This document shows, in pieces, positions 42,291 through 55,249 of a stretch of 64,000 nt of DNA (the first letter of the stretch is position 1; every line of letters begins with the position of its first letter). The notes under the pieces were generated by a model. It did no database searches. It was not told the DNA's origin and saw only the letters and a program-made list of their open reading frames with translations. Both the position numbers and the translations under genes were made by a program. The DNA comes from a virus, in IMG/VR virus record IMGVR_UViG_3300037483_000793, positions 64,001 through 128,000 of that record. One strand, written 5' to 3'.

Positions 42291-43055
42291 CTAGCGGTGC
42301 TTGATCGCGAACTGCAGTGCTTCGCGGCCGAGCCTGAACGCGAGCGCCTTGCCGCTCGGGCCAAGTCGATACGGGCTCTGCGCAGCCCGCTTGGCGATGC
42401 GTAGCGCGAACCATGAAGCGGCGACGACGCCCACGACACCGAGCGCGCCGAGACCGATCTTGGCGCCCGTTGACATGCCGGTCGAGGCCATCGACGGCTG
42501 GACGCCGAGTGTCGCGAGCGCGGCAGCGATCTGTGGCGCGGCATCGCGTGCACCGTCAGCTGTGAAGTGGATCCCGTCGCCGCTCCGCTGCGCCATCTCG
42601 GTCAGCGGCCGGATGTCGAGCGTGCGGTCGATGCCGTACACGCCTCGGATCGTGTCCAGCATGAGCGGTGCAGCGGTCTCGAACTTGATGGCGTCGTACG
42701 ACGGCGGTCCGAGCGCGACAACTTCGGCGTGCGCGAGCTTGTACGCGTCACGGATTGCTTTCATGGCCGTCGCGGTCCGTGCAAGTTCGGGCGTCGTCAT
42801 GCCGCGATTGATGTCGTTGGTGCCAAGAAAGACGATGACTTTGGTCGGCTTGAACTGCGAGATGTCCGACGCGATTTGCGACAACCCGTTCTCGCCCTGA
42901 ATGAAGCTGATCGCCGAGCGGCCAACGCGCGCATTGATGTGGACGTCCTGTGCGCCAGCACCGTGCAGGAGCTGACCGAGAACGCCGCCCGGCGAGAACG
43001 CGCTCGCCGACAAGCTGTCACCGAGAATCAGAATACGCTCGCCGCGGATGTTCAT
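42291..43055 (-). CDS. SGNH/GDSL hydrolase with C-terminal membrane anchor
   Basis: ILILGDSLS, VGRS, FLGTND, DGIHF; C-terminal GLGALGVVGVVAASWFALR then basic tail. Confidence 0.85.
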   Translation of the reverse strand: MNIRGERILILGDSLSASAFSPGGVLGQLLHGAGAQDVHINARVGRSAISFIQGENGLSQIASDISQFKPTKVIVFLGTNDINRGMTTPELARTATAMKAIRDAYKLAHAEVVALGPPSYDAIKFETAAPLMLDTIRGVYGIDRTLDIRPLTEMAQRSGDGIHFTADGARDAAPQIAAALATLGVQPSMASTGMSTGAKIGLGALGVVGVVAASWFALRIAKRAAQSPYRLGPSGKALAFRLGREALQFAIKHR

Positions 43056-43993
43056 CGGCGCTTCCGCGTGTAGCCGACGAGTGGGCCGCGCGTCGCCAAG
43101 TTCTTGGCAACGTGGAGCGCGAGCCAACCCGCACCGACCAAGCCGCCAATCGCGGCAATCACCGCGAAGAACCTTTTGACGCTACTGTCAGCGTCGGCGG
43201 ATTCGGATGCCGTCGTCGAGCAGATCGGCATGTTCGGCGACCAGTTCGGAGCTGCTTCATTCGACACGGCCGCGATACCGCGCGCGAGCAGCGTCATGCC
43301 TTGTGGCGACGTCGGCTGCACGCCGTACTGGCGCATGAGAAACGTGCGGCGGTGATCGACACCCGGCAGCGGACCGACCCAGTAGTTGCCGCGCGTCGCA
43401 GTACTCTGCAGTGTCGCGGCCGGGTTGGGGTACGCGTTGCGGTTGAACAGATTAGATTGATCGTCTGCGAGCCGCGCGAAATTGTGGCTGCGGCCTGACG
43501 CGATGAGGTCTCCGAGTAGGAGCGTTAGCACGCTCGGATCGAGACGCGTCGAGGCCCAACGACGATACGGCGCCGTCGTGACACCGGTCGGTCCATGGAT
43601 CGGACCATAGAAGCCGTAGTTCGGATGGCCTACGCCCTGGTTGTAGAGCAGGACGTTGAGCACCGACTTGCCGCGGAGCTTGGCGCGGTTGACGGCCGCT
43701 TCACCGACAGCGACGCGTTCTTCGATCGTGCCGTTGCCGATCTCGGACTGCATGTAGCGGGCAAGCGTGTAGGCTTCGAGTGAGAGCTTGCCACTGAACA
43801 GTCCCGGCGCGAGCTGCTTGAGCCGCGTCTCGGCGTTCGCGCGCATGCTCTCTGGCGAGCACGCGATGTTGCCCTGGTCGTTGAGCGCACAGCCCGAGAA
43901 CACGGTGACCTGCGCGCCCCGCGCGAGCGGCGCAAGCATGGCGTGCCATGGCGGATAGCACGTCGTCGGCGTGTCCAACATCGGAGTCGCCAC
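43052..43993 (-). CDS. SleB-like (Hydrolase_2) cell-wall hydrolase with C-terminal membrane anchor
   Basis: LARYMQSEIG...ERVAVGEAAVNRA; TM FFAVIAAIGGLVGAGWLAL; tail LVGYTRKRR. Confidence 0.7.
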   Translation of the reverse strand: MATPMLDTPTTCYPPWHAMLAPLARGAQVTVFSGCALNDQGNIACSPESMRANAETRLKQLAPGLFSGKLSLEAYTLARYMQSEIGNGTIEERVAVGEAAVNRAKLRGKSVLNVLLYNQGVGHPNYGFYGPIHGPTGVTTAPYRRWASTRLDPSVLTLLLGDLIASGRSHNFARLADDQSNLFNRNAYPNPAATLQSTATRGNYWVGPLPGVDHRRTFLMRQYGVQPTSPQGMTLLARGIAAVSNEAAPNWSPNMPICSTTASESADADSSVKRFFAVIAAIGGLVGAGWLALHVAKNLATRGPLVGYTRKRR

Positions 43994-43996
43994 GGG

Positions 43997-44608
43997 CTAC
44001 CTGCTCCGGCGGTTCCGACGGCGATAGGTGCGGCCGAGCCCGTTGCGCTTGGGCTTGCCGAAGCCTTGCGCGAACGCGATGGTCGGCGTGATGACCGGAA
44101 ACACCGCACCCATGACGCCCCACCAGATGCCCCAGCCGAGACTGTCGTTGCGTTTGTAGCCGTGATAAACGCTCGCCGCAAACGAAGCAGTGCTCAGCAC
44201 GCCCCAGATGATCCGGACAGGCATCGACGGCGGTTTCAGGAAATTGGCGCGCCGCTCGAATGCGCGCATGCCCTGCTGTACGAGCAACGGATTGGCGCCA
44301 ATCGCAATCGCGCGAGCCGCGACCTCTTGACGTTCGGCGTCCGTCGAGAGGACTTCGAGAATCGCCTGAACGTCCGCAGCGAACATCGCGCTGCGGATCC
44401 GCTCCGCGAGCTTTTGCAGCTCGGCGTCGGTCAGCGCACCGAGCCCACCGAACACACCACTGTCACCGAAACCGCCCGCACCGATGCGGACGTCGCCATC
44501 GGCGGGCAGATTCCACGGGACGGGCTGGATCCCGCCGCCACCTCCGCGAACGACAAAGGTCTCGTGGCGGTGAATAGGCGAAACGGTCTCGGTACCGAGC
44601 GTCAGCAT
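43997..44608 (-). CDS. Membrane protein with YHGYKRN hairpin and GLG-Arg tail
   Basis: Two hydrophobic segments; ends NGLGRTYRRRNRRSR; TAGAAT six nt before ATG. Confidence 0.7.
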   Translation of the reverse strand: MLTLGTETVSPIHRHETFVVRGGGGGIQPVPWNLPADGDVRIGAGGFGDSGVFGGLGALTDAELQKLAERIRSAMFAADVQAILEVLSTDAERQEVAARAIAIGANPLLVQQGMRAFERRANFLKPPSMPVRIIWGVLSTASFAASVYHGYKRNDSLGWGIWWGVMGAVFPVITPTIAFAQGFGKPKRNGLGRTYRRRNRRSR

Positions 44609-44673
44609 GCATTGATTCTACACCCAAACATTCACTTGATCGCGCGAGCGATCGCGTTGTAGCGTCCGTCGCG

Positions 44674-44895
44674 ATGCCACGAGGAAAGGCCGTTGACTAC
44701 GCGCAACCGCTCACACCGTACGAGCGTTCCGACGAAGAGTACCGGCAGCTGGCGATCAGTACGAAGTTGCGAACCCTGGCTGACATGTCCGAGCGCGAGA
44801 TCCGCGCGCTGGAGCGGTACTACAAGTGCCCCGTGATCAGACCCGAGGTGCGCAACCGGCGCCGCCGGGCCCCCGGCCACGCCGTAGCAGCCTGA
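44674..44895 (+). CDS. Hypothetical protein
   Basis: TTGATC-N18-TAGCGT upstream. Confidence 0.45.
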   Translation: MPRGKAVDYAQPLTPYERSDEEYRQLAISTKLRTLADMSEREIRALERYYKCPVIRPEVRNRRRRAPGHAVAA

Positions 44896-44988
44896 CCCGG
44901 GGATCGCTCTGGGCGCCTGAAATCAGCGAATTCAAGCTGATTTGCGCTGTTTTAGGGTCCTGAAATCGCGTACTTACGAGAAAGTGCG

Positions 44989-45012
44989 CTTACTCTTGCT
45001 TTGTTTGAATAG
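44989..45012 (+). promoter_or_regulatory. Class 1 promoter cassette copy
   Basis: CTTACTCTTGCTTTGTTTGAATAG. Confidence 0.7.
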
Positions 45013-45084
45013 CTTGCTGCGTGGGTCGTCTGTAGGGCAGACTCGGTTGTTGCCAAGTCGCTCTCGACAAGGAGACGCCCCCCC

Positions 45085-45522
45085 ATGAAGCTCGCATCCG
45101 GCCCCGACGCACTCAAGTTCGCTCTGGCAGGCAACGCGCGCCTGACGCTTGTGTCCGAGCGCACCGGCACGCGGTTCACGTTCCGCATCAGGGCAAAGGC
45201 CGTCAAGAGCGGCGAGGCTCCGGCACCGCCCTGGTTCGTGTCGGTGCTGACCGGCCGCGAGAACGAGAGCGACTATACGTTCCTCGGCACGATCTTCGAG
45301 GACCGCGTCACCTACCGCCACGGCCGCAAGTCGACCGTGTCGCCCGAGGCGCCGAGCGCCAAGGGCTTCGCGTGGGCCTGGACGTTCATTGCCAAGGGCG
45401 AGCTGCCGCCGGGCTGCGAAGTCTGGCACGAGGGTCGCTGCGGTCGCTGCGGTCGCGCGCTGACCGTGCCTGAGTCGATTGCGTTGGGCATCGGGCCCGA
45501 GTGCGCGAGCGGAGGGTTCTAG
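45085..45522 (+). CDS. DUF6011-domain protein
   Basis: C-terminal RCGRCGRALTVPESIALGIGPEC. Confidence 0.8.
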   Translation: MKLASGPDALKFALAGNARLTLVSERTGTRFTFRIRAKAVKSGEAPAPPWFVSVLTGRENESDYTFLGTIFEDRVTYRHGRKSTVSPEAPSAKGFAWAWTFIAKGELPPGCEVWHEGRCGRCGRALTVPESIALGIGPECASGGF

Positions 45523-45525
45523 GTC

Positions 45526-48500
45526 ATGTTCGATCTCAATAGTCTCAAGCTCATTCGTCAGCGCTGCGTCGATCCTATGTGCTGCCAGGGCAGCGTTGAT
45601 TGCGAGCGCCCGATTCACGTGTTCACGTACCCCGGTTTCGACGGCTACGTCGAAGCGTGCAGCGAGCACGCCCGCGAGGAACTTGCGACCGCCGTCGATG
45701 AGAACGACTGGCAGATCATCGATGGCAAGCTCGTCGAGCGCACCGACAACCGCTGCCGCGACTGTGGCGTTCTCGGTGAGACGGTCGGACATCAAACCTG
45801 TGCGTACCCGCAGGAGCACCTATGACGATGTTCTACGTCGAGAAGCCTGAATCCCAGCCGCGTGCATACGAGCTGACGGACACGGTGCCCGCGCCCTCGG
45901 GCCCGTACCGTCGCTACATCACGAAGTTCGAACAGACGCCCGCATTCATCGTGCACAGCAAGATGCACGGCACGCACGAGAAGCCGCAGCCGTATGTCGT
46001 GCGTGGCGTATCCAAGCGCGGAGAGCTGCTCGTGCAGGCGACGGTCGAGACCAAGTACGAGCCGATCGGCCGTTGGCTCGAAGTCGAGTGCGGCGACACG
46101 CAGGAAGGCTACCGGTTCAAGCGCCGCCTGCTCAAGCCGATCGCGACGCTGATCAAGATCGCGGCCGATGCCGCCAAGGCGAACGCGCGTGTGCAGAAGC
46201 AGCAGGCGCATCAGGCGGACCGCGACGAAAAGTGCGGCGAGTGCCCGGCCTGCTTCGGTGACTACGTCGTGGTGCCGACCAATGCAGCGCGGCTCAAGTT
46301 GAGCAACGCGGCGCAGTACAAGATGGTTCATCACGGCTACGAGCGGCCTGGTGACGGCATGATTCACGGTGATTGCTACGGCGTTGGTTACGCGCCGTTC
46401 GAGGTCTCGTGCGAAGGCACCAAGTTCTACCGTGGCATCGTGCAGAACTCACTGCAGATGCGTCAGGACGTACTGACGGCGCTGCCAATGTTGGAGACGG
46501 TCAAGGTCGAGGACGGCTCCAAGTTCGTCGGCGGGCGGTTCTGGCCCGTGTACAAGGAAATCAAGCGTGGCGAGTACGGGTTCGACGCCGAAATCGCGTT
46601 GCGCCGTCGGAAGCTCGAAAGCCAAATCGATTCGGCCAGGCATCACCTCGCCGAGCTGAACAAGAAGATCGCGAACTGGAAGCCGCAGCCGTTTCCACGA
46701 CCGATCAAGAAAGGCAAAACGTCGTGACCAAGACCAAGCGTCGTGTTTCCCGTGAACAGCGTCTGCGCGACGACGTTGCGTATGCCGCCTCATGTCTCAA
46801 AGAGGCAGGTGACCCACTTCATCACCTCGGCCCGAGCGGGCAGTACGAGGACGCGTTCCAGCGCTACAGCAAAGCGATGCATGCACTGCTCGCGTTCGAC
46901 TGTCCACTCGGGATCGAGGAGTGGACGTGGGACGGCTATGCCGGGACATTCCACTTCAAGTGGGTGTTCGGTGCGCAGGCGCGCGAGCTGGGATCCGCCA
47001 AGGCGTACGAGACCCGATACATCAACATGACGTCGCACGGGCGCCTCGACGATTCCAAGCTGATCGACGAGGAGCTGGTGCGCCTCCGCGCCGAAGCTGT
47101 GTATCTCGACGAGATGCGCAGGGCCTTGACGCGTTGGTCACACGATCACGTGAAGGGCGCCGCCAAATGAAGTGGACCAAGGTCCGTGCGGGCCTGTACC
47201 GCAGCGGCAAGTACGAGCTGCGTCAGGCACGGTGGCGCGCGTCCAACGACGGTTGGATGATCACGACCGACGACGAATCGTTCCATGACTCGGCGCGGCT
47301 TCTGGTCAAAGCAAAGCGCCGTTGCGAGACGCACGCTGCAGACGAGATCAAGAAGGAAGAGCAGCGTCTCGGTCCCGATTTCGGGACGCGCCTGTTCAAT
47401 GCGCATGCGAAGGTAGCCGCGACCGCGCCAAAAACAACGGAGCCGGTGATCCCGAAGGTCGATTTGCTCAATGCATCGGCGCAGCTGTTCTGCGAGACGT
47501 TGTTCCTGGCATCGAAGATCGGTGTCACGGACGCGATGCAAAAGGTCACGCGAGACGATCACGCGCTCGCGACATTGCTCTGCAAGCCGAAGTGCTACCG
47601 CTACGAACACGTGCGCATGCTTCACGAAGCATACGAGGCGGGCCAAACGTTCATGGAGCTGCAAGGTCAACCGACGAACATGAAGTGGGACAAGTCATGA
47701 GCGACTCCAGACGCATCACCAACGAGACGAAGTCGATCCGTTCGGTTGAGAAGGGATCGCGCCTCACGCGCGAGTGCCGTTCGCAGCGCTTGTACTGGCG
47801 CGGTGTGCTGTTCTCGTTCGCGACAAAGCACCACGGTCACGACTACTTCATCGCCGAGATCGATTGCCTCGGAAGGATCATGTGATGGGAAAAAACCGCG
47901 TCAACATCAAGGCAATTCTTCGCGACCCTGCACAGTGCCGCGAGCTGATGATCGATACGATCATCGCAACACAAGCACGCGAAGGCATCACGACCACGCG
48001 CAAGCAAGCTGCGGCTGCATGGGACAAGGTGCAGATAGAGAAGGCGCAGTACTCACTCAAGCAGCGCTTGGACGTTTCACCACAGCGGCCGTTGCCCGTT
48101 CCGCCTGGGTATCGTGACATCGCCACCGCGTTCGGCGAAGCCGAGTTGGAAGAGCCTGTGATGCGCGAGATCTTGGAGCGGTACCACTTCACCAAGCGCG
48201 AACGCAGGGCGCTCGTGAAGGCGATTGTCGCGGGCTACCTCGAAGGTTGGGTTCGCGCCAACTGCGAGCGCGATGATCTGGCCAATCCCATCCTGATGAT
48301 CAGCGCGCCATAGGAGCTGACCATGAACGACACCACACGCGAACACCTGATGAATCACCGGCACACGAAGAACGACGGCTCGGAGTGGGCATACGACGCG
48401 CAGGGCATCGAGTTGTGCCGCGTGTGTCCCGAGTGCCGCGACGTCAAGCTGTCGCAGTACCGGCCGGAGATCCTGACCGGTTACGACCAGCACGACGTCA

Positions 48501-48756
48501 ACGAACCCATCGAACCCGAACCGGAGTAGCCATGTCACACCAACCGCCGGGATACCCGACCAAGGCCGAGCGTGATGCCGCGCTTCAGGCGCTGAAACAA
48601 ATTCGCGACCACGGCGAGAAGATTTTGATCAACTCGATGCACAGCCAACGTGCACGCAACCTGCTGGTGACACTCTCGACGTGCATCGAGGTTCTGCGAC
48701 GCGATCCGGACATGTACTTCAAGGCGGTGATGGTCGAGATCGAAGGCGAGCCATGA
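45526..48756 (+). other. Run of hypothetical CDSs (45526-45825, 45822-46727, 46724-47170, 47167-47700, 47697-47885, 47885-48313, 48323-48529, 48532-48756)
   Basis: Coupled ORFs; 45822 has CPAC..HHGYERPG..C.G phage motif. Confidence 0.6.
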
Positions 48757-49187
48757 CACGTAAGCCAGAGCGCGGCAGCGCCAAAGACAAACTCGAAACG
48801 GTCAAGCAGTGCAAGTCATGTCCTTGGCGTGTCGACTGCGTGCCTGAGAAAGACATCCCGAACGGCTACTGCGCGAACATGCACGCTGAGCTGCACGGCA
48901 CGATCAAAAGTGGTCTGGAGTCGTTGCCGCGACCGGGCGGCGTCATCCGTGCGATGGCGTGCCACTACAGCAAACCCGGCGAGGAGTTCGTCTGCGCTGG
49001 TTGGTTGGAGAATCAGCTCGGGCCTGGCAACAACATCGCGGCGCGTCTCAAGGTTATGACAGGCGCGTGGCCGGTGCCCGAGATCGACGGCGAGCAACAC
49101 GAGCGCTTCGAGGACACGCTGCCCAAAACTAGCACTCGGGCGCCCAAGCGAACGCGACGGCCCCGACAGCCGCGCCGGTCGCGGTGA
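48753..49187 (+). CDS. DUF6283-like Cys/His protein
   Basis: QCKSCPWR...MACH...VCAGWL. Confidence 0.6.
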   Translation: MTRKPERGSAKDKLETVKQCKSCPWRVDCVPEKDIPNGYCANMHAELHGTIKSGLESLPRPGGVIRAMACHYSKPGEEFVCAGWLENQLGPGNNIAARLKVMTGAWPVPEIDGEQHERFEDTLPKTSTRAPKRTRRPRQPRRSR

Positions 49188-49380
49188 TGCCGACGGCGGT
49201 CGCCAGACCGTCCGAAATCGGTTCGCCGGGCGCCGATCGTGCGAGCCGCCGCAGGGACACGGTCGTGCCCACCACCAGGCCCAAAACGCCACCTACGAGA
49301 CCACCCATGAGCGCCCCAGCTGTGCCGCGGGCGACGCGCGAGCTGCGACTACAGTGCGCGCTGAGCTGACGACGGCGCAT
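49129..49380 (-). CDS. Gly-zipper helical-hairpin membrane protein ending PEC
   Basis: Paralogous to the C-half of 49381-49860. Confidence 0.65.
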   Translation of the reverse strand: MRRRQLSAHCSRSSRVARGTAGALMGGLVGGVLGLVVGTTVSLRRLARSAPGEPISDGLATAVGITATGAAVGAVAFAWAPEC

Positions 49381-49860
49381 CTAGCACTCCGGCTTGGCGG
49401 CGCCGATAGCGAGGCCGCTGACAGCGCCCAGGACCGCGATACCGGACCCGATGAGCATCCAGTGCTTGTAGCGGGCGATGCTAGCGATGGGTTCCGTGAT
49501 GTCGGCCTGCGTGGTCGCGACGGCGACAGCTAGGCCGCCGCCAATCATGCTGCCGATCACGCCGCCGATCAGGGCGCCGAGCCCGCCACGAACGACGCGG
49601 GACGTGTTCGAGCAGGAAGAACTGCCCAGATTCTTGCGATTCCGCACACCATCGAAGTGAATCTTCGCGAGCTTCTTGTAGTAGTTTTTGTCTTCGCACA
49701 GGTGATCGAGCGCGATCTGTTGCGCGATCTTGTGATCGGTGGTGTGTTCCAGCTCGACCGCGGTACCTCGATGTAGCTGCGCAGCGTCGAAGTCCTTTGT
49801 GTGGCATCCGTGACGGCGGGCGTAACCGTTAGGTAGACGGACAGATCGTGCGGGCGTCAT
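49381..49860 (-). CDS. DUF5661-like domain fused to Gly-zipper membrane hairpin ending PEC
   Basis: GTAVELEHT.D...A.QIALDHL.E...YY.KL; two TM segments. Confidence 0.7.
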   Translation of the reverse strand: MTPARSVRLPNGYARRHGCHTKDFDAAQLHRGTAVELEHTTDHKIAQQIALDHLCEDKNYYKKLAKIHFDGVRNRKNLGSSSCSNTSRVVRGGLGALIGGVIGSMIGGGLAVAVATTQADITEPIASIARYKHWMLIGSGIAVLGAVSGLAIGAAKPEC

Positions 49861-49895
49861 GCGCTCGACGATACCATGATCGCGTGCGCGATCGA

Positions 49896-50114
49896 CTAGA
49901 GGGCGTCGGCGGTCGGCAGGCCGAGACCGCGCCGCATAACGTCACGCGCCGCCGACGAGATGTTGGGCTTGCGCTCGTCGTCCCGGCGGATGCCTTCGAG
50001 CTTGCGCGCGTAGGCTTCGAGGCGGTCGTGCAGTGTATCGTCGACGACAACGTGCAGATGACGAACGTGATCGCTGGCGCGACTGGTGGACCGCTTGGGA
50101 CGTTTTGGCTTCAC
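49896..50114 (-). CDS. Ribbon-helix-helix DNA-binding protein
   Basis: HLHVVVDDTLHDRLEAYA...NISSAARDVMRRGL; TATGAT seven nt before GTG. Confidence 0.6.
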   Translation of the reverse strand: MKPKRPKRSTSRASDHVRHLHVVVDDTLHDRLEAYARKLEGIRRDDERKPNISSAARDVMRRGLGLPTADAL

Positions 50115-50147
50115 GCGTGACATCATACTCGCGCTTTGCGCGCGAGG

Positions 50148-50879
50148 CTAGTGTCGCTTGAGCAGGACCGCTGTGACCAGGCCGAGCACGACTGCGCTGC
50201 CAGTCGCAGCAGCGATCACGATCTTCGTCTTGCGTGACATCGGGGGCTTCGAGACGGCAATCGGCCTTGGCGCAACCGGCGTCACGTCGCCCGACTTGAG
50301 CGCGGTGATCATGTTCTCGATCGCCGCTTTGACGTCGTCGAGTGTCCCGAGCGTCGCGATCGCGATCGTCGGGTCCATCATGCGCGCGTTGTTGATGCGC
50401 GCGGTTACGTCGCTGTTGGGGACCTGTGCCGCGACCGTGCCACCTGCTGCGGCAGTTGCCTGCTGCAGCAGCGCCATCGTCCCGCCGTGGACGACCCACA
50501 ACCGGTTGTTGAAGTCGCTGTACGCGCCGGTCGAAGTGCCGACGTCGAACACGACATCAAAGCTGTGGAACGTGGTCACCATCCCAAGGAAGCGCTCGAA
50601 CACCGCGATCGCATCCTCGGCAGACATGCCTGCAGCACCGAATCCGGGCTGCATGTACATGTTCGGATCGTACATGTAGTGGTACCGCGACGTCTCCGCG
50701 TCGGGGTAGTGCTTGCCGATCACGCCCGAGTAGATGCGGCTCTGATCATAGCGCGCCGCGTGCACGGGAAACTCGGCGGCGTAGAAGTCGGGGAAGCCGT
50801 AGCGGTACGGACCCTTTCCCCACTTCGTGACCAGCTCGTTGGCGCTCTCGCCGAAGGCGCCGTAGTGCGCGATCAGCAC
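50148..50879 (-). CDS. Tail-anchored membrane protein with AFG leader (putative virion)
   Basis: MLIAHYGAFG; C-terminal TM IVIAAATGSAVVLGLVTAVLL-KRH. Confidence 0.65.
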   Translation of the reverse strand: MLIAHYGAFGESANELVTKWGKGPYRYGFPDFYAAEFPVHAARYDQSRIYSGVIGKHYPDAETSRYHYMYDPNMYMQPGFGAAGMSAEDAIAVFERFLGMVTTFHSFDVVFDVGTSTGAYSDFNNRLWVVHGGTMALLQQATAAAGGTVAAQVPNSDVTARINNARMMDPTIAIATLGTLDDVKAAIENMITALKSGDVTPVAPRPIAVSKPPMSRKTKIVIAAATGSAVVLGLVTAVLLKRH

Positions 50880-50882
50880 GGG

Positions 50883-51755
50883 TTACCGGCTCCGCGAACG
50901 GCGCCGACCGAGTGCGGGCGACGTGTAGAGGAAGCCGGGCTTGTGCTTGCCCGCCGCGACCGCACCGACGGTGGTGAGGCCGACCATCGCAGCGGCGCCC
51001 ATGACGATTGGCGCCCACTTGCTGCGCTGTTCGCCTGCCTTGGGCACGACGAACGGAATCGTCGAGACGTCGAGCTGCGTCTGGATCGGAACGTTGCCGC
51101 GCTCGTTGAATTGCGACAACAGCGCCGGGAAGTGATCAGCGACGTCGTTGAGGTAGTCGGCGATCTCCGTCGAATACTTGGCGTAGATGTCCGTGCGTGT
51201 CGGCGACACGAATGCGAGGGCGATGCCCGGGTTCGGGAACTTCTTGAGCATGCCCGCGAGTGTCAGCGCGAGTACCGTGAACTGCATCGTCGAAGCACCG
51301 ACCACACCGTCGTAGCCGCTCTGCGCGCCAACTGGGCTCATGAGGTTCGAGGGCACCGTGAAGATCTGCTCGGATGTCGATCCGTCGCCGGACGGCATCT
51401 GACCTTTCATCTGCCGCCCCGCGAGACCGTTGGTCGGGATGAGGTCGATCACGCGGTCGGCAGCGCGCTGCATGTTGCGAATCGGTGCCTTGCCGCTCTC
51501 GCCAGCCTTGTTGAGCACACACTGCGGACGGTTCGCGTTGTCCTTGGTGCAGTACACGAGCCCGTCATCGGACTTGTACGTGGTGCCCGCACCAGCTGCC
51601 TGGAACACGGAAAAGTCCGATACTGCTGCGCCAAAACCGTAGCCGGTGTTGACCCCGCCGCGCATGCGGGCACGGTCCTGCGCGACCTGGATAAGAACAA
51701 GCGCGGAGGGCGCTTGCGACTGCCCAAATCCGTTGCCGTAGGAGCTGACGATCAT
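50883..51755 (-). CDS. Tail-anchored protein with GFG leader and PG-binding-like DGVVG..T motif
   Basis: MIVSSYGNGFG; YDGVVGAST; TM; tail ALGRRRSRSR. Confidence 0.6.
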   Translation of the reverse strand: MIVSSYGNGFGQSQAPSALVLIQVAQDRARMRGGVNTGYGFGAAVSDFSVFQAAGAGTTYKSDDGLVYCTKDNANRPQCVLNKAGESGKAPIRNMQRAADRVIDLIPTNGLAGRQMKGQMPSGDGSTSEQIFTVPSNLMSPVGAQSGYDGVVGASTMQFTVLALTLAGMLKKFPNPGIALAFVSPTRTDIYAKYSTEIADYLNDVADHFPALLSQFNERGNVPIQTQLDVSTIPFVVPKAGEQRSKWAPIVMGAAAMVGLTTVGAVAAGKHKPGFLYTSPALGRRRSRSR

Positions 51756-51795
51756 GTGGTTAGCCTACCACAGAAGCGATCCCAGCAGCGATCGA

Positions 51796-52500
51796 CTACC
51801 GGCGCCGACGACGGCGCGCGAGGTTCGACTTCGACTTCGCTTTCTTGGGCGCGGGCTCACGCAGCACGGCATAACCGACGGCACCGACGACGACGACACC
51901 GGCAACGCCAGCGGTGACCCAGACCCACGTCGGGACCTTGCCCGATGTCGCGATCGGCATGAGCGACGCCGCGGCTGGGTTTGCGCCCGGCATCATGGTG
52001 GGCTGGATCGCTGCGGTCGTCGTTCCTCGTGGCGCCGTCACCATCAGCGACGGTGAAAGCGAAACCGACGTAGGCGGCGTGACGACGGCAATCGGCGTGC
52101 TGGACGGAACCGGCGTCGGCGTCGAGGTCGCAACAGGGAACTGCGATCGCGGCGCGGTCACACCGCCGAGAAACGCTTGCAGCCCGTCCTGAAGGATCTG
52201 TGCGTTCGATGCGATTGCCTCCTTCGTCGAGCCCGGTGACGCGAGCAGCGCTGCCGCCGCGGCCGCGCGTGCGGCCGTGACTGTCTGCGCCCCGATGAAG
52301 CCGTCGACGGTGAGCTGCCCCGTGTACGCAGACAGCCCGAGCTTGGCGTACTGGTTCAGCGTGCCCTGCAGCTGCTGAAGCAGCGCGTGGTTTGCTGCGC
52401 CGATCGCGTAGCAGATGCTGCTGTTGCAGTTGAAGTCGGTGCCTTGCGAGAGCACGCGAGCGGCGCCAAACGCGCCACTGATCGTTGTCGTGAACAGCAC
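51796..52500 (-). CDS. Peptidoglycan-binding-domain protein, Pro/Thr linker, C-terminal TM
   Basis: LTVDGFIGAQTVTA; FNCNSSICYA; tail NLARRRRRR. Confidence 0.75.
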   Translation of the reverse strand: MLFTTTISGAFGAARVLSQGTDFNCNSSICYAIGAANHALLQQLQGTLNQYAKLGLSAYTGQLTVDGFIGAQTVTAARAAAAAALLASPGSTKEAIASNAQILQDGLQAFLGGVTAPRSQFPVATSTPTPVPSSTPIAVVTPPTSVSLSPSLMVTAPRGTTTAAIQPTMMPGANPAAASLMPIATSGKVPTWVWVTAGVAGVVVVGAVGYAVLREPAPKKAKSKSNLARRRRRR

Positions 52501-52503
52501 GGG

Positions 52504-53082
52504 CTAACCCCGTGCCTTGCGACGGTAGACGACGTAGCCGACGCCGCCGACACCGAGCACGGCCACGACGCCGCCAAGGATCCACCACAGCGTCTTGGAC
52601 TTGACCTTCGGCAGCGCCGCGGCAGCAGGTGACATGCCCGGGATCTGCACAGGTCCGATCGTGGTCGTCTGGTGCACGACTGGCGGCGGCTGGTACGCGA
52701 CAGCAGTACCGGACGGCGACGGCCGCATGCCTCCAGCCTGTTGTACGACGGCGAGGTTCTGAAGCAGGTCGATCAGCATGCCCGCGTTTGCGGCGACGGC
52801 TTCTTTCGTCGATGGCGCCGTCGCGAGACCCAGCCTCTTGATCGCTTGCAGCGCCGTTACCGTAGCGGCGCCGATGAAGCCATCGACGGTGAGCGGCTTG
52901 AAGCCTGCAGCACCGGAGAAGACGTTCGTCTTCATCTGCAGCTGCTTGAACAACGCGTCGTTCGTCGGGCCGATCGCGTAGCAGATGGCGTTGTTGCAGT
53001 TGAAGTCCTTGCCCTGTGTCAGCCCGGCGGCGCTGAAGCCGTAGCCGAAGCCGTTACCGCCGCTGTGAGCCTGAATAAGCAT
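52504..53082 (-). CDS. Peptidoglycan-binding-domain protein (paralog of 51796-52500), C-terminal TM
   Basis: LTVDGFIGAATVTA; FNCNNAICYA; GGAG RBS before ATG 53082. Confidence 0.75.
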   Translation of the reverse strand: MLIQAHSGGNGFGYGFSAAGLTQGKDFNCNNAICYAIGPTNDALFKQLQMKTNVFSGAAGFKPLTVDGFIGAATVTALQAIKRLGLATAPSTKEAVAANAGMLIDLLQNLAVVQQAGGMRPSPSGTAVAYQPPPVVHQTTTIGPVQIPGMSPAAAALPKVKSKTLWWILGGVVAVLGVGGVGYVVYRRKARG

Positions 53083-53207
53083 GGATTCTCCTGTCCAAAC
53101 ATGTATCACGCGAGGTCCGGGACGGGCAACGATCGCGCACGCGATCGGCCTGCCAAACGCCTGTCAGGCCCTCCGAAACCTCGATCGCGTCGGCGATCCA
53201 GAGTAGG

Positions 53208-53540
53208 ATGAACGTCAACGTCGTGAACCCCGCCGCCAACGCCCGCACCATCGTCGTGCTGTTCACGATCCCCGGATGTGAAGCGTGCGCGGAGTACAAG
53301 CCGCGCTTTCAGCGCATCGCGCAGCAGTATCAAAACGTCGTGCCCATCTACATGCTCAACGCTAACGACACGCGACCGGACGTCGCGGACCTTGCAAGTC
53401 GTTTGCATGTTGCGAACGTACCTGCGACGTTCGTGTTGCGGCGACCGACCGGCGTGATCCGCGTCGAAGGTGCTATCCCTGATTCTCAAATCGCGTGGCT
53501 GCTTGGTGTCGCTGCGCGCGAAGTGTCGAACCCTTACTAG
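53208..53540 (+). CDS. Thioredoxin-fold protein without signal peptide
   Basis: FTIPGCEAC (CxxC) and VANVPATF cis-Pro loop. Confidence 0.85.
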   Translation: MNVNVVNPAANARTIVVLFTIPGCEACAEYKPRFQRIAQQYQNVVPIYMLNANDTRPDVADLASRLHVANVPATFVLRRPTGVIRVEGAIPDSQIAWLLGVAAREVSNPY

Positions 53541-53553
53541 GAGAGAAACGAGA

Positions 53554-53898
53554 ATGATGTACGCAAACCTTCGCGACGCCAGTGGCAACATGGTCGGCTC
53601 CGTCGCAGTCGATCCCACGCAGGCAGGTGGCCTGCAAGGCGCTCTCAGCGACGCGATGCAGAAGCTGCAGCACGCGCAAGGCCAAGGCGTGCCGCACCAG
53701 GCACGTCCACTGCCGCCCGGTTACCTACCGCCGGGTGCGGGCCAGTCACAGCCGTACTCGCAGTCGCGGCCGTTTGTCTGCCAGATGCGTTACCAGACGC
53801 GCGCGCCGAACGGCCAGGTCGTGTGGGCGACGCAGTCGATCACGTGCCCGCCGGGGATGCCGCCGGGCATCTACATCCACTCGCCCGGCCACCGCTAG
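53554..53898 (+). CDS. Gln/Pro-rich hypothetical protein with 2 Cys
   Basis: GGAG RBS; follows thioredoxin. Confidence 0.6.
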   Translation: MMYANLRDASGNMVGSVAVDPTQAGGLQGALSDAMQKLQHAQGQGVPHQARPLPPGYLPPGAGQSQPYSQSRPFVCQMRYQTRAPNGQVVWATQSITCPPGMPPGIYIHSPGHR

Positions 53899-54434
53899 TT
53901 CTTGGCGGTGGCGGCGGTTCCGCTGCGCGTGTCGGGGAACTTCTTCGACGCGTAGTGGATCGTGGTGTAAAACGTCGCGCACGTGATGACGTCGATCGCG
54001 ACCATCGTTGCGATCGGCCACGACAGCGGCAACGTGGTGGTCAAGTACACCGGCACGTAGATCGCGCGTGTGATCATCACGCAGATGGCGAGGCTGATCG
54101 GGTTACCGCGCGCACGCCACGAGCGGAAGAACCGTAGCAGAACGGGGATCCAGGCCAGAGCGACGACGAGCGTCGCGATGGGTACAGCTTCCTGGTTCAC
54201 GTTGGTTCACGACTTGACGTGCAGGCCAGCGCCGTTGAGGGTGTGCTTGAGGTCGGTGCTGGCCCGACCGAAGCGTTGTACGTGACGCCGCTGGGCGACT
54301 TCAGCCGCCGCGTGGATCTGTTGATCCACTTCGGCTGCAGCGTGCCTGACGGTGCGCCGTGTGCGCCGCTGCCACAGTCCGAGACCGACGACGAGCACGA
54401 TGAAGATCAGAACCGATGTTACGAAGGACCACAT
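53895..54434 (-). other. Two small membrane proteins (53895-54200 multi-TM; 54207-54434 single N-terminal TM)
   Basis: Hydrophobic segments; adjacent to holin-like gene. Confidence 0.55.
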
Positions 54435-54435
54435 G

Positions 54436-54642
54436 TCATTTTCCTTCTTCAGGAGCTGTGCCAGCAGCGAGCGTCACAGCTTCGGGAACATCGAGTGTCT
54501 TCAAGATCACCGCGTTGACGATGGTGAGCTTTTGGATGAGGAGACGAATTTCTCGCAGCTCACGCGTGACGCTCATCATGAGCCACAGCGCAAAGCCGAC
54601 GGGAAATCCCCACCGCTCGATGATGGTTTGGAAGAGATCCAC
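54436..54642 (-). CDS. YvrJ/BhlA-like holin-type small membrane protein
   Basis: IIERWGFPVGFALWLM followed by amphipathic helix. Confidence 0.55.
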   Translation of the reverse strand: MDLFQTIIERWGFPVGFALWLMMSVTRELREIRLLIQKLTIVNAVILKTLDVPEAVTLAAGTAPEEGK

Positions 54643-54658
54643 GAGTAGTTAGTCGTGG

Positions 54659-54943
54659 TTACATCCGAGCGGCGACGCACTTGCGGAACGCCTTGGCACT
54701 CTTGCCCTTGCAGGCACGTGCAGCGGCGGCGAGCTTGCGCTTGTACGGCGCGAGGTGGCGCGTCGATGGCGCGCGACGCGGCGAGCAGCCCGGCCCGGTC
54801 TTGCCCTTGAACGAGATGACCTTGCCACGCTTGGTCTTGAAACGGACGATGCCGCTCCGGCAGCTGGCGCCGCGCGCGCGGCTCCGCTTCTTGCTGCGCT
54901 TCTTCCGTGCACCGAGGGCCTCGAACGTGTTGATACCGAACAT
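54659..54943 (-). CDS. Very basic putative DNA-condensing core protein
   Basis: MFG..EALG-ARKKRSKKRSRAR; Lys/Arg rich; 4 Cys; AGGAG RBS. Confidence 0.65.
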   Translation of the reverse strand: MFGINTFEALGARKKRSKKRSRARGASCRSGIVRFKTKRGKVISFKGKTGPGCSPRRAPSTRHLAPYKRKLAAAARACKGKSAKAFRKCVAARM

Positions 54944-54971
54944 GCTGCTCTCCTGAAGGTTGTGCGCTGCC

Positions 54972-55127
54972 TTAGCGCTTGACGAACGGGTTCGGACGCT
55001 GCACCGGACGCTGCACCGGACGCTGCACGGGCCGCGCGGGTTGCGCAGGCATCGTACGAACGCAGCAATCCTTGCCGGACTGCGGAGCTTGCCGAACAGG
55101 AGCTTTGGGGCTACGGCGACCGAACAT
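54972..55127 (-). CDS. Unannotated 51-aa basic protein MFGRRSPK...(PVQR)3...KR
   Basis: Below ORF-track cutoff; TGG-TAGGAT seven nt before ATG; contains the 12-bp repeat in frame. Confidence 0.6.
   Translation of the reverse strand: MFGRRSPKAPVRQAPQSGKDCCVRTMPAQPARPVQRPVQRPVQRPNPFVKR
54993..55028. repeat. 12-bp tandem repeat CGGACGCTGCAC x3 (encodes PVQR on minus strand)
   Basis: Read directly. Confidence 0.9.
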
Positions 55128-55249
55128 GGCGTTCATCCTACCAGAACATTCGGTCGATCGCGCAAGCGATCGGGTACGCCAACGTGGGCGATCCCTTCAG
55201 GGACTGTTTGACCCGTACTGGCGCTACCCGTACATTCGAGCCCAGCGCC

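Follow-up and report, generated by a model that had tools for sequence, protein, structure and literature searches.

Short glycine-ended N-terminal tags on putative virion proteins of a large uncultured virus, and a tag-bearing C39 peptidase as their candidate processing enzyme

Why do consecutive and partly unrelated genes of an uncultured virus encode proteins that begin with the same kind of short, glycine-ended peptide? The question is raised by a 64,000-nucleotide stretch (the window), which comprises bases 64001-128000 of one 195,792-bp contig, IMG/VR record IMGVR_UViG_3300037483_000793. The shared tag, together with a virus-encoded leader peptidase of family C39 that bears the same tag, suggests that the tag is probably an address label that is cut off. 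We estimate a probability of about 0.5 that the virus encodes a double-glycine-like leader system for marking and trimming its virion proteins. The genes concerned in the window are as follows (aa, amino acids; hyphens in peptides mark the proposed junction):

43997..44608, minus strand: protein H, 203 aa, with an ML start, a conserved N-terminal piece and a Gly-rich stretch ending VFGGLG-ALT
50148..50879, minus strand: protein A, 243 aa, GTG start, leader MLIAHYGAFG followed by ESANELV
50883..51755, minus strand: protein B, 290 aa, leader MIVSSYGNGFG followed by QSQAPS, with a C-terminal membrane helix
51796..52500, minus strand: protein C, 234 aa, GTG start, leader MLFTTTISGAFG followed by AARV
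52504..53082, minus strand: protein D, 192 aa, leader MLIQAHSGGNGFG followed by YGFSAAG
54659..54943, minus strand: basic Cys-containing protein, 94 aa, leader MFGINTFEALG followed by ARKKRSKKRS
54972..55127, minus strand: small basic Pro-rich protein, 51-54 aa, starting MFG-RR

Genes A to D are tightly packed on the minus strand between 50148 and 53082, and each encodes a C-terminus made of a Gly-rich hydrophobic helix and a basic tail. Protein A ends in a membrane helix and KRH, and protein D in a membrane helix and RRKARG. Protein C consists of a Cys-containing domain that weakly resembles PG_binding_3 (Pfam score under the cut-off), a Pro/Thr-rich linker, a membrane helix and a poly-Arg tail. 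Protein A has no Pfam or PHROG match. Protein H has two hydrophobic segments at its C-terminus, and the 94-aa basic protein is a candidate DNA-condensing core protein. Protein D is a paralog of C (BLASTP, 40% identity, E = 4e-34), and proteins A and B show no BLASTP similarity to C/D or to one another.

The N-termini reported in the initial annotation, at 50879, 51755, 52500, 53082, 54943 and 55127, were all found in the open reading frames (ORFs) and their translations. The assigned starts of the leader genes are supported by an upstream stop codon lying 3-40 nt before the start in three of the genes A to D, as in translational coupling, and by the invariance of M1 in ortholog alignments. The ORF of protein D is extendable to 53109, but its orthologs start at ML. 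The ORF of the smallest protein spans 54972-55136, so that MFG-RR is preceded by two optional codons; it failed a crude composition filter, the gap in which it lies looks intergenic, and the contigs of relatives have no gene call there. It is a real gene, because tblastn gives matches of 53-80% identity at the corresponding position in five relatives, all with MFGRR; CCVR and PFVKR are also kept.

The tag codons vary between copies (GGC/GGT/GGA and TTC/TTT), which points to selection on the peptide and rules out a DNA-level repeat or promoter element as the origin of the tag. Chance is also excluded, both by the frequency of [GA]FG and by the enrichment of a strict leader pattern described below. 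The predicted proteome contains 47 [GA]FG in 50,229 residues (0.94 per 1000); by our arithmetic, about 0.01 per protein is expected in residues 5-14, and its occurrence in four adjacent genes has a likelihood of about 1e-8. At the DNA level, palindromes of the GATCGC-N4-GCGATC type were seen just upstream of several leader genes (51755, and genome positions 140590 and 143277) and of the C39 gene at 31345.

Comparison with orthologs changed the definition of the tag. The [G/A]-F-G pattern is present where it had been described, and as a conserved end it gives way to [F/L/Y]-G in orthologs, such as MLVAQLG-ESANELV in the A family. From these sequences, the tag is best described as M-[L/I/F]-hydrophobic-x-[T/S/H/Q], a variable spacer, and small-[F/L/Y]-G followed by A, Q, E or D. 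It is 3 to about 25 residues long, the spacer (0 to about 20 residues) is often rich in Gly and aromatic residues, and the tag is located at the junction between a variable N-terminal piece and the conserved protein body. Further orthologs of A in syntenic contigs begin MMAVQLG-ESANELV and MLIANHSQLG-ESANELV, and those of B begin MLVSSYFNGFG-QSQAPS, MLALYGFG-QPSLL and MLSAHVRGFG-ATSLL. The 33 homologs of protein C, all metagenomic, share 35-65% identity with it; their N-termini read ML(F/I)T or similar, then a stretch rich in Gly, Tyr and Phe whose length varies, then G-[F/Y/L]-G-A directly before the conserved Cys-containing domain (alignment A1). Orthologs of D read MLIQQHSGGNGFGYGFGAAG, MLVQARSGYNGFGAGLG and MFIQSHSGGSGYGFGY. 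In the 94-aa basic protein, whose orthologs read MFG-ARKRKRSK, MFETLG-ARGKK and MFEDSFGDSFG-ARPKK, residues M1, G11, A12 and R13 are invariant (alignment A7), and in protein B the invariant residues are M1, G9, F10, G11, G42, P280, A281, G283 and R284 (alignment A4).

Loss of the motif in orthologs had been named beforehand as the outcome that would speak against a code; the motif is kept in all families, including members of the B family below 30% identity. A profile of B compared with 1.84 billion cluster representatives retrieved 48 proteins, and nearly all full-length members, even those with E near 1e-10, start with ML and have [F/L]-G abutting the conserved domain. A contig of a distant metagenome-assembled genome (MAG), GCA_040384425.1, contains about ten tandem tail-anchored genes with the tag, with starts including MLAMTRGTMFG-D, MLTMTRGGNGFG-D, MLAMTQYRRRGFG-D and MLALTLSGSGLG-D. 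The alignments show purifying selection on the tag over great evolutionary distances. Searches for related loci in IMG/VR with A and with C, the A1 profile against species genomes, and tblastn of protein C against cultured phages gave no matches; the leader families are therefore known from metagenomes only. Other bearers are encoded outside the window, and ML-type starts also occur on the tail-anchored genes neighbouring them:

genome position 143277: leader bearer starting MLQTQYYGNGFGGFG
genome position 146144: leader bearer starting MYVNEMQRTINGFG-QA
genome position 177339: leader bearer starting MLVASSGTFG-R

The internal GFG/GLG motifs that the initial annotation had placed before domain starts are present and conserved. 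Protein B has the internal junction GYGFG-AAV near residue 42, where G42 is invariant, and protein A has QPGFG-AAG, where Q77, P78, G79 and G81 are invariant (alignment A5). The VFGGLG-ALT junction of protein H retains F53, G54 and G57, and the length of its Gly-rich stretch varies (alignment A6). Similar junctions occur near C-termini: the basic tail of B is joined by ALG-RRRSRSR and that of H by NGLG-RTYRRR (G192 and R193 invariant in A6), and [F/L]-G also precedes poly-Arg tails in two further proteins.

The tags differ from known export signals. As had been proposed, inspection showed that they are unlike Sec, Tat, lipoprotein and prepilin leaders: they have 3-5 hydrophobic residues and lack a basic n-region, RR or Cys. 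These four leader classes were accordingly rejected; the residues after the Gly are polar. The accompanying statement that the leaders are not hydrophobic needs correction, since the first 3-5 residues are hydrophobic (ML-I/F/V), too short a run for a signal peptide. A membrane-insertion signal was ruled out, since some bearers of the tag have no membrane anchor and, in relatives, many tail-anchored proteins have no leader.

The likeness of a short, Gly-ended leader to double-glycine leaders prompted a search of the genome with Peptidase_C39, and one gene was found outside the window:

genome 31345-31926 (L002:11345-11926): stand-alone Peptidase_C39, 193 aa, tail-anchored

The match to PF03412 scores 53.6 bits in the six-frame search and 50.9 bits for the protein (cut-off 22). 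The protein begins MLAAAHLG-D-VEPYQQ, which constitutes a leader of its own, and ends in a membrane helix and RRKRAS. Its motifs (Gln and Cys in QQIAKYSCGAA, His in GHF, and Asp in MDPN) align to the QIDTRDCG, H and DP motifs of ComA. Contigs as long as 241 kb carry 46 orthologs, each about 195 aa in length, in which leader and anchor are both kept; all except one short fragment match Pfam C39. Across 18 aligned orthologs H105 (GHF) and D120 (MDPN) do not vary, and at least 90% have Q14/Q15 and C21 (YSCGAA). The anchor is preceded by an [F/L]-G junction as well, QLG-E or QFG in orthologs. In the 35 orthologs with a placeable N-terminal junction, Leu (31) or Phe (4) occupies P2, Gly (32) occupies P1, and P1' is Asp, Gln or Glu in 33. 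The AlphaFold model has a predicted local distance difference test score (pLDDT) of 81 with a disordered leader, and its best superpositions by Foldseek are with PCAT1, the ComA PEP (template modelling score 0.87, root-mean-square deviation 2.3) and LahT150 (template modelling score 0.81); the reference structures are 3K8U and 5XE8 for the ComA PEP, 6MPZ for LahT150, and 4RY2 and 6V9Z for PCAT1. The Pfam match, the catalytic residues and the fold all agree, and the enzyme belongs to family C39. A single ABC_tran match was obtained in the genome, under the cut-off (22 bits versus 25), so no ABC exporter was recognised there.

A quite different role for this enzyme, as a cell-wall peptidase (lysin) of the virion with the shared N-termini being remnants of gene duplication that have no signal function, appears very improbable. 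Peptidase_C39_2, a family that occurs in phage endolysins, does score 38.9 bits on the viral protein; enzymes acting on wall or membrane occur elsewhere in the module (a GDSL lipase here, an M23 peptidase in a relative); and duplication is evident in C and D and in another protein, E, with its neighbours. However, C39 proper outscores C39_2, and all nine matches of the ortholog profile in the PDB are leader peptidases (ComA, LahT150 and PCAT1), with no lysin among them. Proteins A, B, C/D and H, the basic proteins and C39 have no detectable similarity beyond the tag, yet all are tagged, and the purifying selection on the tag also argues against mere remnants.

We consider a leader system with C39 as its peptidase. 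The leader would mark a set of late, probably virion proteins, of which more than 10 are tail-anchored membrane proteins and two or more are small and basic. The tail-anchored C39 would read the small-[F/L/Y]-Gly junction and cut after the Gly. Its predicted topology is that of its putative substrates, with a cytoplasmic N-terminal domain and a C-terminal anchor in the same membrane, and trimming may take place on the cytoplasmic side of that membrane while the particle is assembled. Selection by papain-like peptidases depends chiefly on P2, where a bulky hydrophobic residue is often preferred; this would fit [F/L/Y] at P2. The cleavage, C39 as its agent, its timing and the virion location of the bearers are inferences.

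The distribution of C39 allows a comparison between genomes. C39 was found in G000 and, among the 15 IMG/VR relatives of the capsid candidate described below, only in G001 (221 kb) and G008 (a 95-kb fragment also holding L016); five complete genomes, 81-138 kb long and with terminal repeats, lack it. We applied one crude gene caller, which misses several true leader bearers, and one strict leader pattern to seven genomes. In the C39-carrying G000 and G001, the strict leader is present on 11/36 tail-anchored proteins versus 14/439 other proteins (p = 2e-7); in the five C39-lacking genomes the corresponding counts are 3/49 and 15/478 (p = 0.23). Tail-anchored proteins with the strict leader are thus more frequent where C39 is present (11/36 vs 3/49, p = 0.006), and in either genome group about 3% of the other proteins carry it as background. 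This comparison supports a link between C39 and the leader.

Several points weigh against processing by C39. P2 is Gly in canonical C39 sites, instead of Phe or Leu, and the minimal leader MFG, with three residues, falls below the length of any leader that C39 peptidases are known to recognise. The extreme N-terminus is strongly conserved, which would be needless for a protease that reads only P3-P1'. The co-occurrence of C39 and leader amounts to a single phylogenetic contrast, involving one large-genome subclade. Some C/D paralogs in C39-carrying genomes start straight at the domain and have no leader, and C39-lacking relatives keep some leader-like starts on tail-anchored proteins (MLFLRGLG-R, MMQTRLLGLG-A and MLLARDGFGGLG-AFG-A). 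The virion status of the bearers is deduced from gene content, and the model of the capsid candidate introduced below is of low confidence. Finally, Peptidase_C39_2 domains are known in phage lysins (10.1101/2021.02.23.432618).

The leader-like starts in C39-lacking genomes could be explained if another enzyme cut the leader and C39 had a different role or served a subset of substrates only. The candidate would be the following gene product:

genome 139656-140465 (L014:656-1465), minus strand: transglutaminase-like Cys-His-Asp enzyme, membrane-anchored

This enzyme scores 22.9 bits with Pfam Transglut_core (cut-off 23), has more than 280 metagenomic homologs, and keeps C193, H226 and D245 invariant in 18 of them. 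It is a hallmark gene of the group, found in 15/15 related viral records including all those without C39, and it is 79-87% identical in relatives whose leader proteins reach only 50-60%. The gene lies divergently beside the second leader-protein array, and it adjoins the tail-anchored gene array both here and in the distant MAG contig. However, the family is not known for leader removal (its members are cross-linkers, amidases or proteases), no solved relative was found by sequence, and access to the leaders would depend on the orientation of the enzyme in the membrane. The genomes that have only this enzyme are those with no strict-leader enrichment on tail-anchored proteins, as given above. 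Its own GAFG was considered as a conserved site and rejected, as it is not kept in homologs. We regard cleavage by the transglutaminase-like enzyme as improbable.

The conservation of the extreme N-terminus bears on a second question, whether the tag is removed at all. If it were retained, its N-terminal hydrophobic strand and flexible Gly-aromatic hinge could dock the bearers onto a common partner, such as a capsid lattice, a scaffold or a membrane patch, and so load the particle. Such a binding element is consistent with the finding that M-L-hydrophobic equals the [F/L]-G end in conservation and with the occurrence of leader-like N-termini without C39. A protein encoded next to the capsid candidate has multiple FG/LG motifs (MFGLDEFGQ..., HFGATLFGG), as in short linear binding motifs, and a tail-anchored protein and the capsid candidate share an N-terminal VGVAPxTTT, so that N-terminal mimicry does occur in the group. 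Docking leaves unexplained the encoded leader peptidase with the same tag, the restriction of the post-Gly residue mostly to A, Q, E and D, and the [F/L]-G before C-terminal poly-Arg tails; moreover, docking in a fixed geometry is hard to reconcile with a spacer of 0 to about 20 residues. We consider retention of the tag for docking rather unlikely, though a reading to be kept in view. The proposal of a dedicated processing or targeting code in the initial annotation stands in part: motif conservation, the placement of junctions and a candidate cognate enzyme favour it. The support is partial because cleavage is as yet a proposal, the motif definition was revised, the leaders resemble a known class (the double-glycine leaders processed by C39 peptidases), and leader-like N-termini occur at a low rate in relatives without C39.

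The contig's first 177 bases are found again at its end, indicating that the genome is complete and either circularly permuted or terminally redundant. Its GC content is 62%, and no tRNA was detected within the window. The genome encodes a family-A DNA polymerase with a fused uracil-DNA glycosylase domain, ribonucleotide reductase, SNF2 and DEAD helicases, a primase-polymerase, and dozens of tail-anchored proteins. Profile searches of the genome gave no match to Terminase_6N, HK97-type Phage_capsid, Pox_A32, Peptidase_S77/S78 or adenain, and no capsid, portal or tail protein was recognised when the larger proteins were compared with PHROG and Pfam. The virus belongs to a large, uncultured lineage of bacterial viruses that is apparently non-HK97 and membrane-containing. 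Its capsid candidate is the following:

genome 135255-136004 (L013:7255-8004), minus strand: capsid candidate, starting MAGAVGVAPSTTTLTL

The candidate has 15 relatives in IMG/VR. Its predicted fold is of low confidence (pLDDT 52 only) and has no Foldseek match at E <= 0.001; the weak Foldseek list is topped by single-jelly-roll capsid proteins, which we do not take as evidence. The complete genomes of 81-138 kb with terminal repeats (IMG/VR records G002, G006, G007, G011 and G014; L021, L025, L026, L030 and L033) carry both the capsid candidate and the transglutaminase-like enzyme, so that the genomes of 196-221 kb form an expanded subclade within a wider group of viruses.

Several further proteins deserve description. 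The multi-FG protein adjacent to the capsid candidate (272 aa; genome 136170-136988, L013:8170-8988, minus strand) contains spaced GNFGE, DMFGL, DEFGQ and HFGATLFGG, is kept in a distant relative, and may be a multi-site substrate or a multi-valent binder. The tail-anchored protein at genome 145617-146141 (L014:6617-7141, plus strand) has VGVAPxTTTxxLG near its N-terminus, as in the capsid candidate; the pair is kept in all relatives examined, including those without C39, suggesting that a membrane protein mimics the N-terminal arm of the capsid protein. About 500 records of cultured phages, chiefly those of Klebsiella, Salmonella, Dickeya and other enterobacteria, contain a protein (PHROG 2426) with which a 789-aa vWA protein of this virus (genome 130533-132902, L005:4533-6902, minus strand) shares 33-34% identity over 95% of its length; no stronger link to cultured phages was found.

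Two enzyme genes neighbour the leader genes in the window:

42291..43127, minus strand: GDSL-type lipase/acylhydrolase with a C-terminal membrane helix and no leader (Lipase_GDSL_2 40.5 bits, cut-off 32.9)
53208..53540, plus strand: thioredoxin (Pfam Thioredoxin 31.7 bits, cut-off 23.5)

The lipase is a tail-anchored enzyme of the same module and is syntenic in relatives. The thioredoxin gene lies divergently beside D and is kept there in the relatives with gene lists, except that it was not flagged in L017. A thioredoxin beside Cys-containing leader proteins recalls the cytoplasmic disulfide pathways of poxviruses and giant viruses. Cysteine also marks an adjacent pair of tail-anchored proteins encoded on the minus strand at 49381-49860 and 49129-49380, one of them with DUF5661; both end in a conserved Pro-Glu-Cys right after the membrane helix (...AAKPEC and ...WAPEC); the terminal Cys is kept in orthologs and may be a site of lipidation or of a disulfide.

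A full-text literature search found no published description of a viral C39 maturation system. If the proposed processing is correct, this would be, as far as that search shows, the first leader system of the double-glycine type inside a virus, and one that acts on large membrane proteins, without an exporter and with an altered P2 specificity. The tag would then provide a readable rule for which orphan genes encode particle components, with predictable mature ends, and the protease and tag would form a small, self-contained pair testable in Escherichia coli. The wider setting is a virus of 196 kb in which no HK97 capsid, terminase or A32-type ATPase is recognisable and tail-anchored proteins number in the dozens.

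Among known systems, phage T4, with its capsid targeting sequence and prohead protease gp21, and the phiKZ-type processing of head proteins offer a first comparison: a leader of ~10 residues is common to unrelated particle proteins, including basic internal ones, loads them, and is then removed by the virus's own protease. T4 differs in its (L/I)-x-E site, its serine protease of family S77 and its HK97-type head, whereas here the site is [F/L]-G and the bearers are mostly membrane-anchored. No match to PF03420 (S77) was found in the genome, an absence that is weakly shown because control genomes also gave none, and there was no S78 match. A second comparison is with the viral cysteine proteases that trim Gly-ended sites on membrane and basic core proteins as large DNA virus particles mature, namely adenovirus adenain, poxvirus I7 (AG|X) and African swine fever virus pS273R (GG|X). 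These belong to clan CE (Ulp1-like), act in eukaryotic hosts and have Gly or Ala at P2; the genome has no match to PF00770 (Peptidase_C5), the one CE family searched.

The closest likeness is to double-glycine/C39 systems, in which an enzyme of the same family is membrane-held and one leader type occurs on many unrelated cargoes; the viral leaders are likewise short, N-terminal, non-Sec and hydrophobic-patterned, with Gly at P1. Unlike PCAT/AMS proteins, the viral C39 has no ABC transporter and is a stand-alone protein of 193 aa with a C-terminal anchor and its own leader. Double-glycine sites have G at P2 and G/A/S at P1, whereas the viral P2 is F, L or Y. Double-glycine leaders are 15-30 residues long with hydrophobic residues at -4, -7, -12 and -15, in contrast to viral leaders of 3 to about 25 residues with the hydrophobic residues at positions 2-4 from the N-terminus and at variable distance to the Gly. 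Double-glycine cargoes are small secreted peptides, whereas the presumed viral substrates are about 50-630 aa and mostly membrane-anchored, and the viral junction also stands before C-terminal basic tails. The proposed trimming would be analogous to leader removal by the PCAT peptidase domain, to the head-targeting leaders of T4 and to the propeptides of adenovirus core proteins. In its widest form, which we put forward tentatively as a possibility, a captured bacteriocin-type C39 peptidase may have become the maturation and sorting enzyme of particles in an apparently non-HK97, membrane-containing lineage of bacterial viruses. There it would read a two-part code, the N-terminal Met-Leu-hydrophobic cap and the small-Phe/Leu-Gly junction, on more than 10 unrelated membrane and core proteins, whether the code stands in an N-terminal leader, between internal domains or ahead of a C-terminal poly-Arg tail, as an independent bacterial-virus counterpart of adenovirus and poxvirus maturation.

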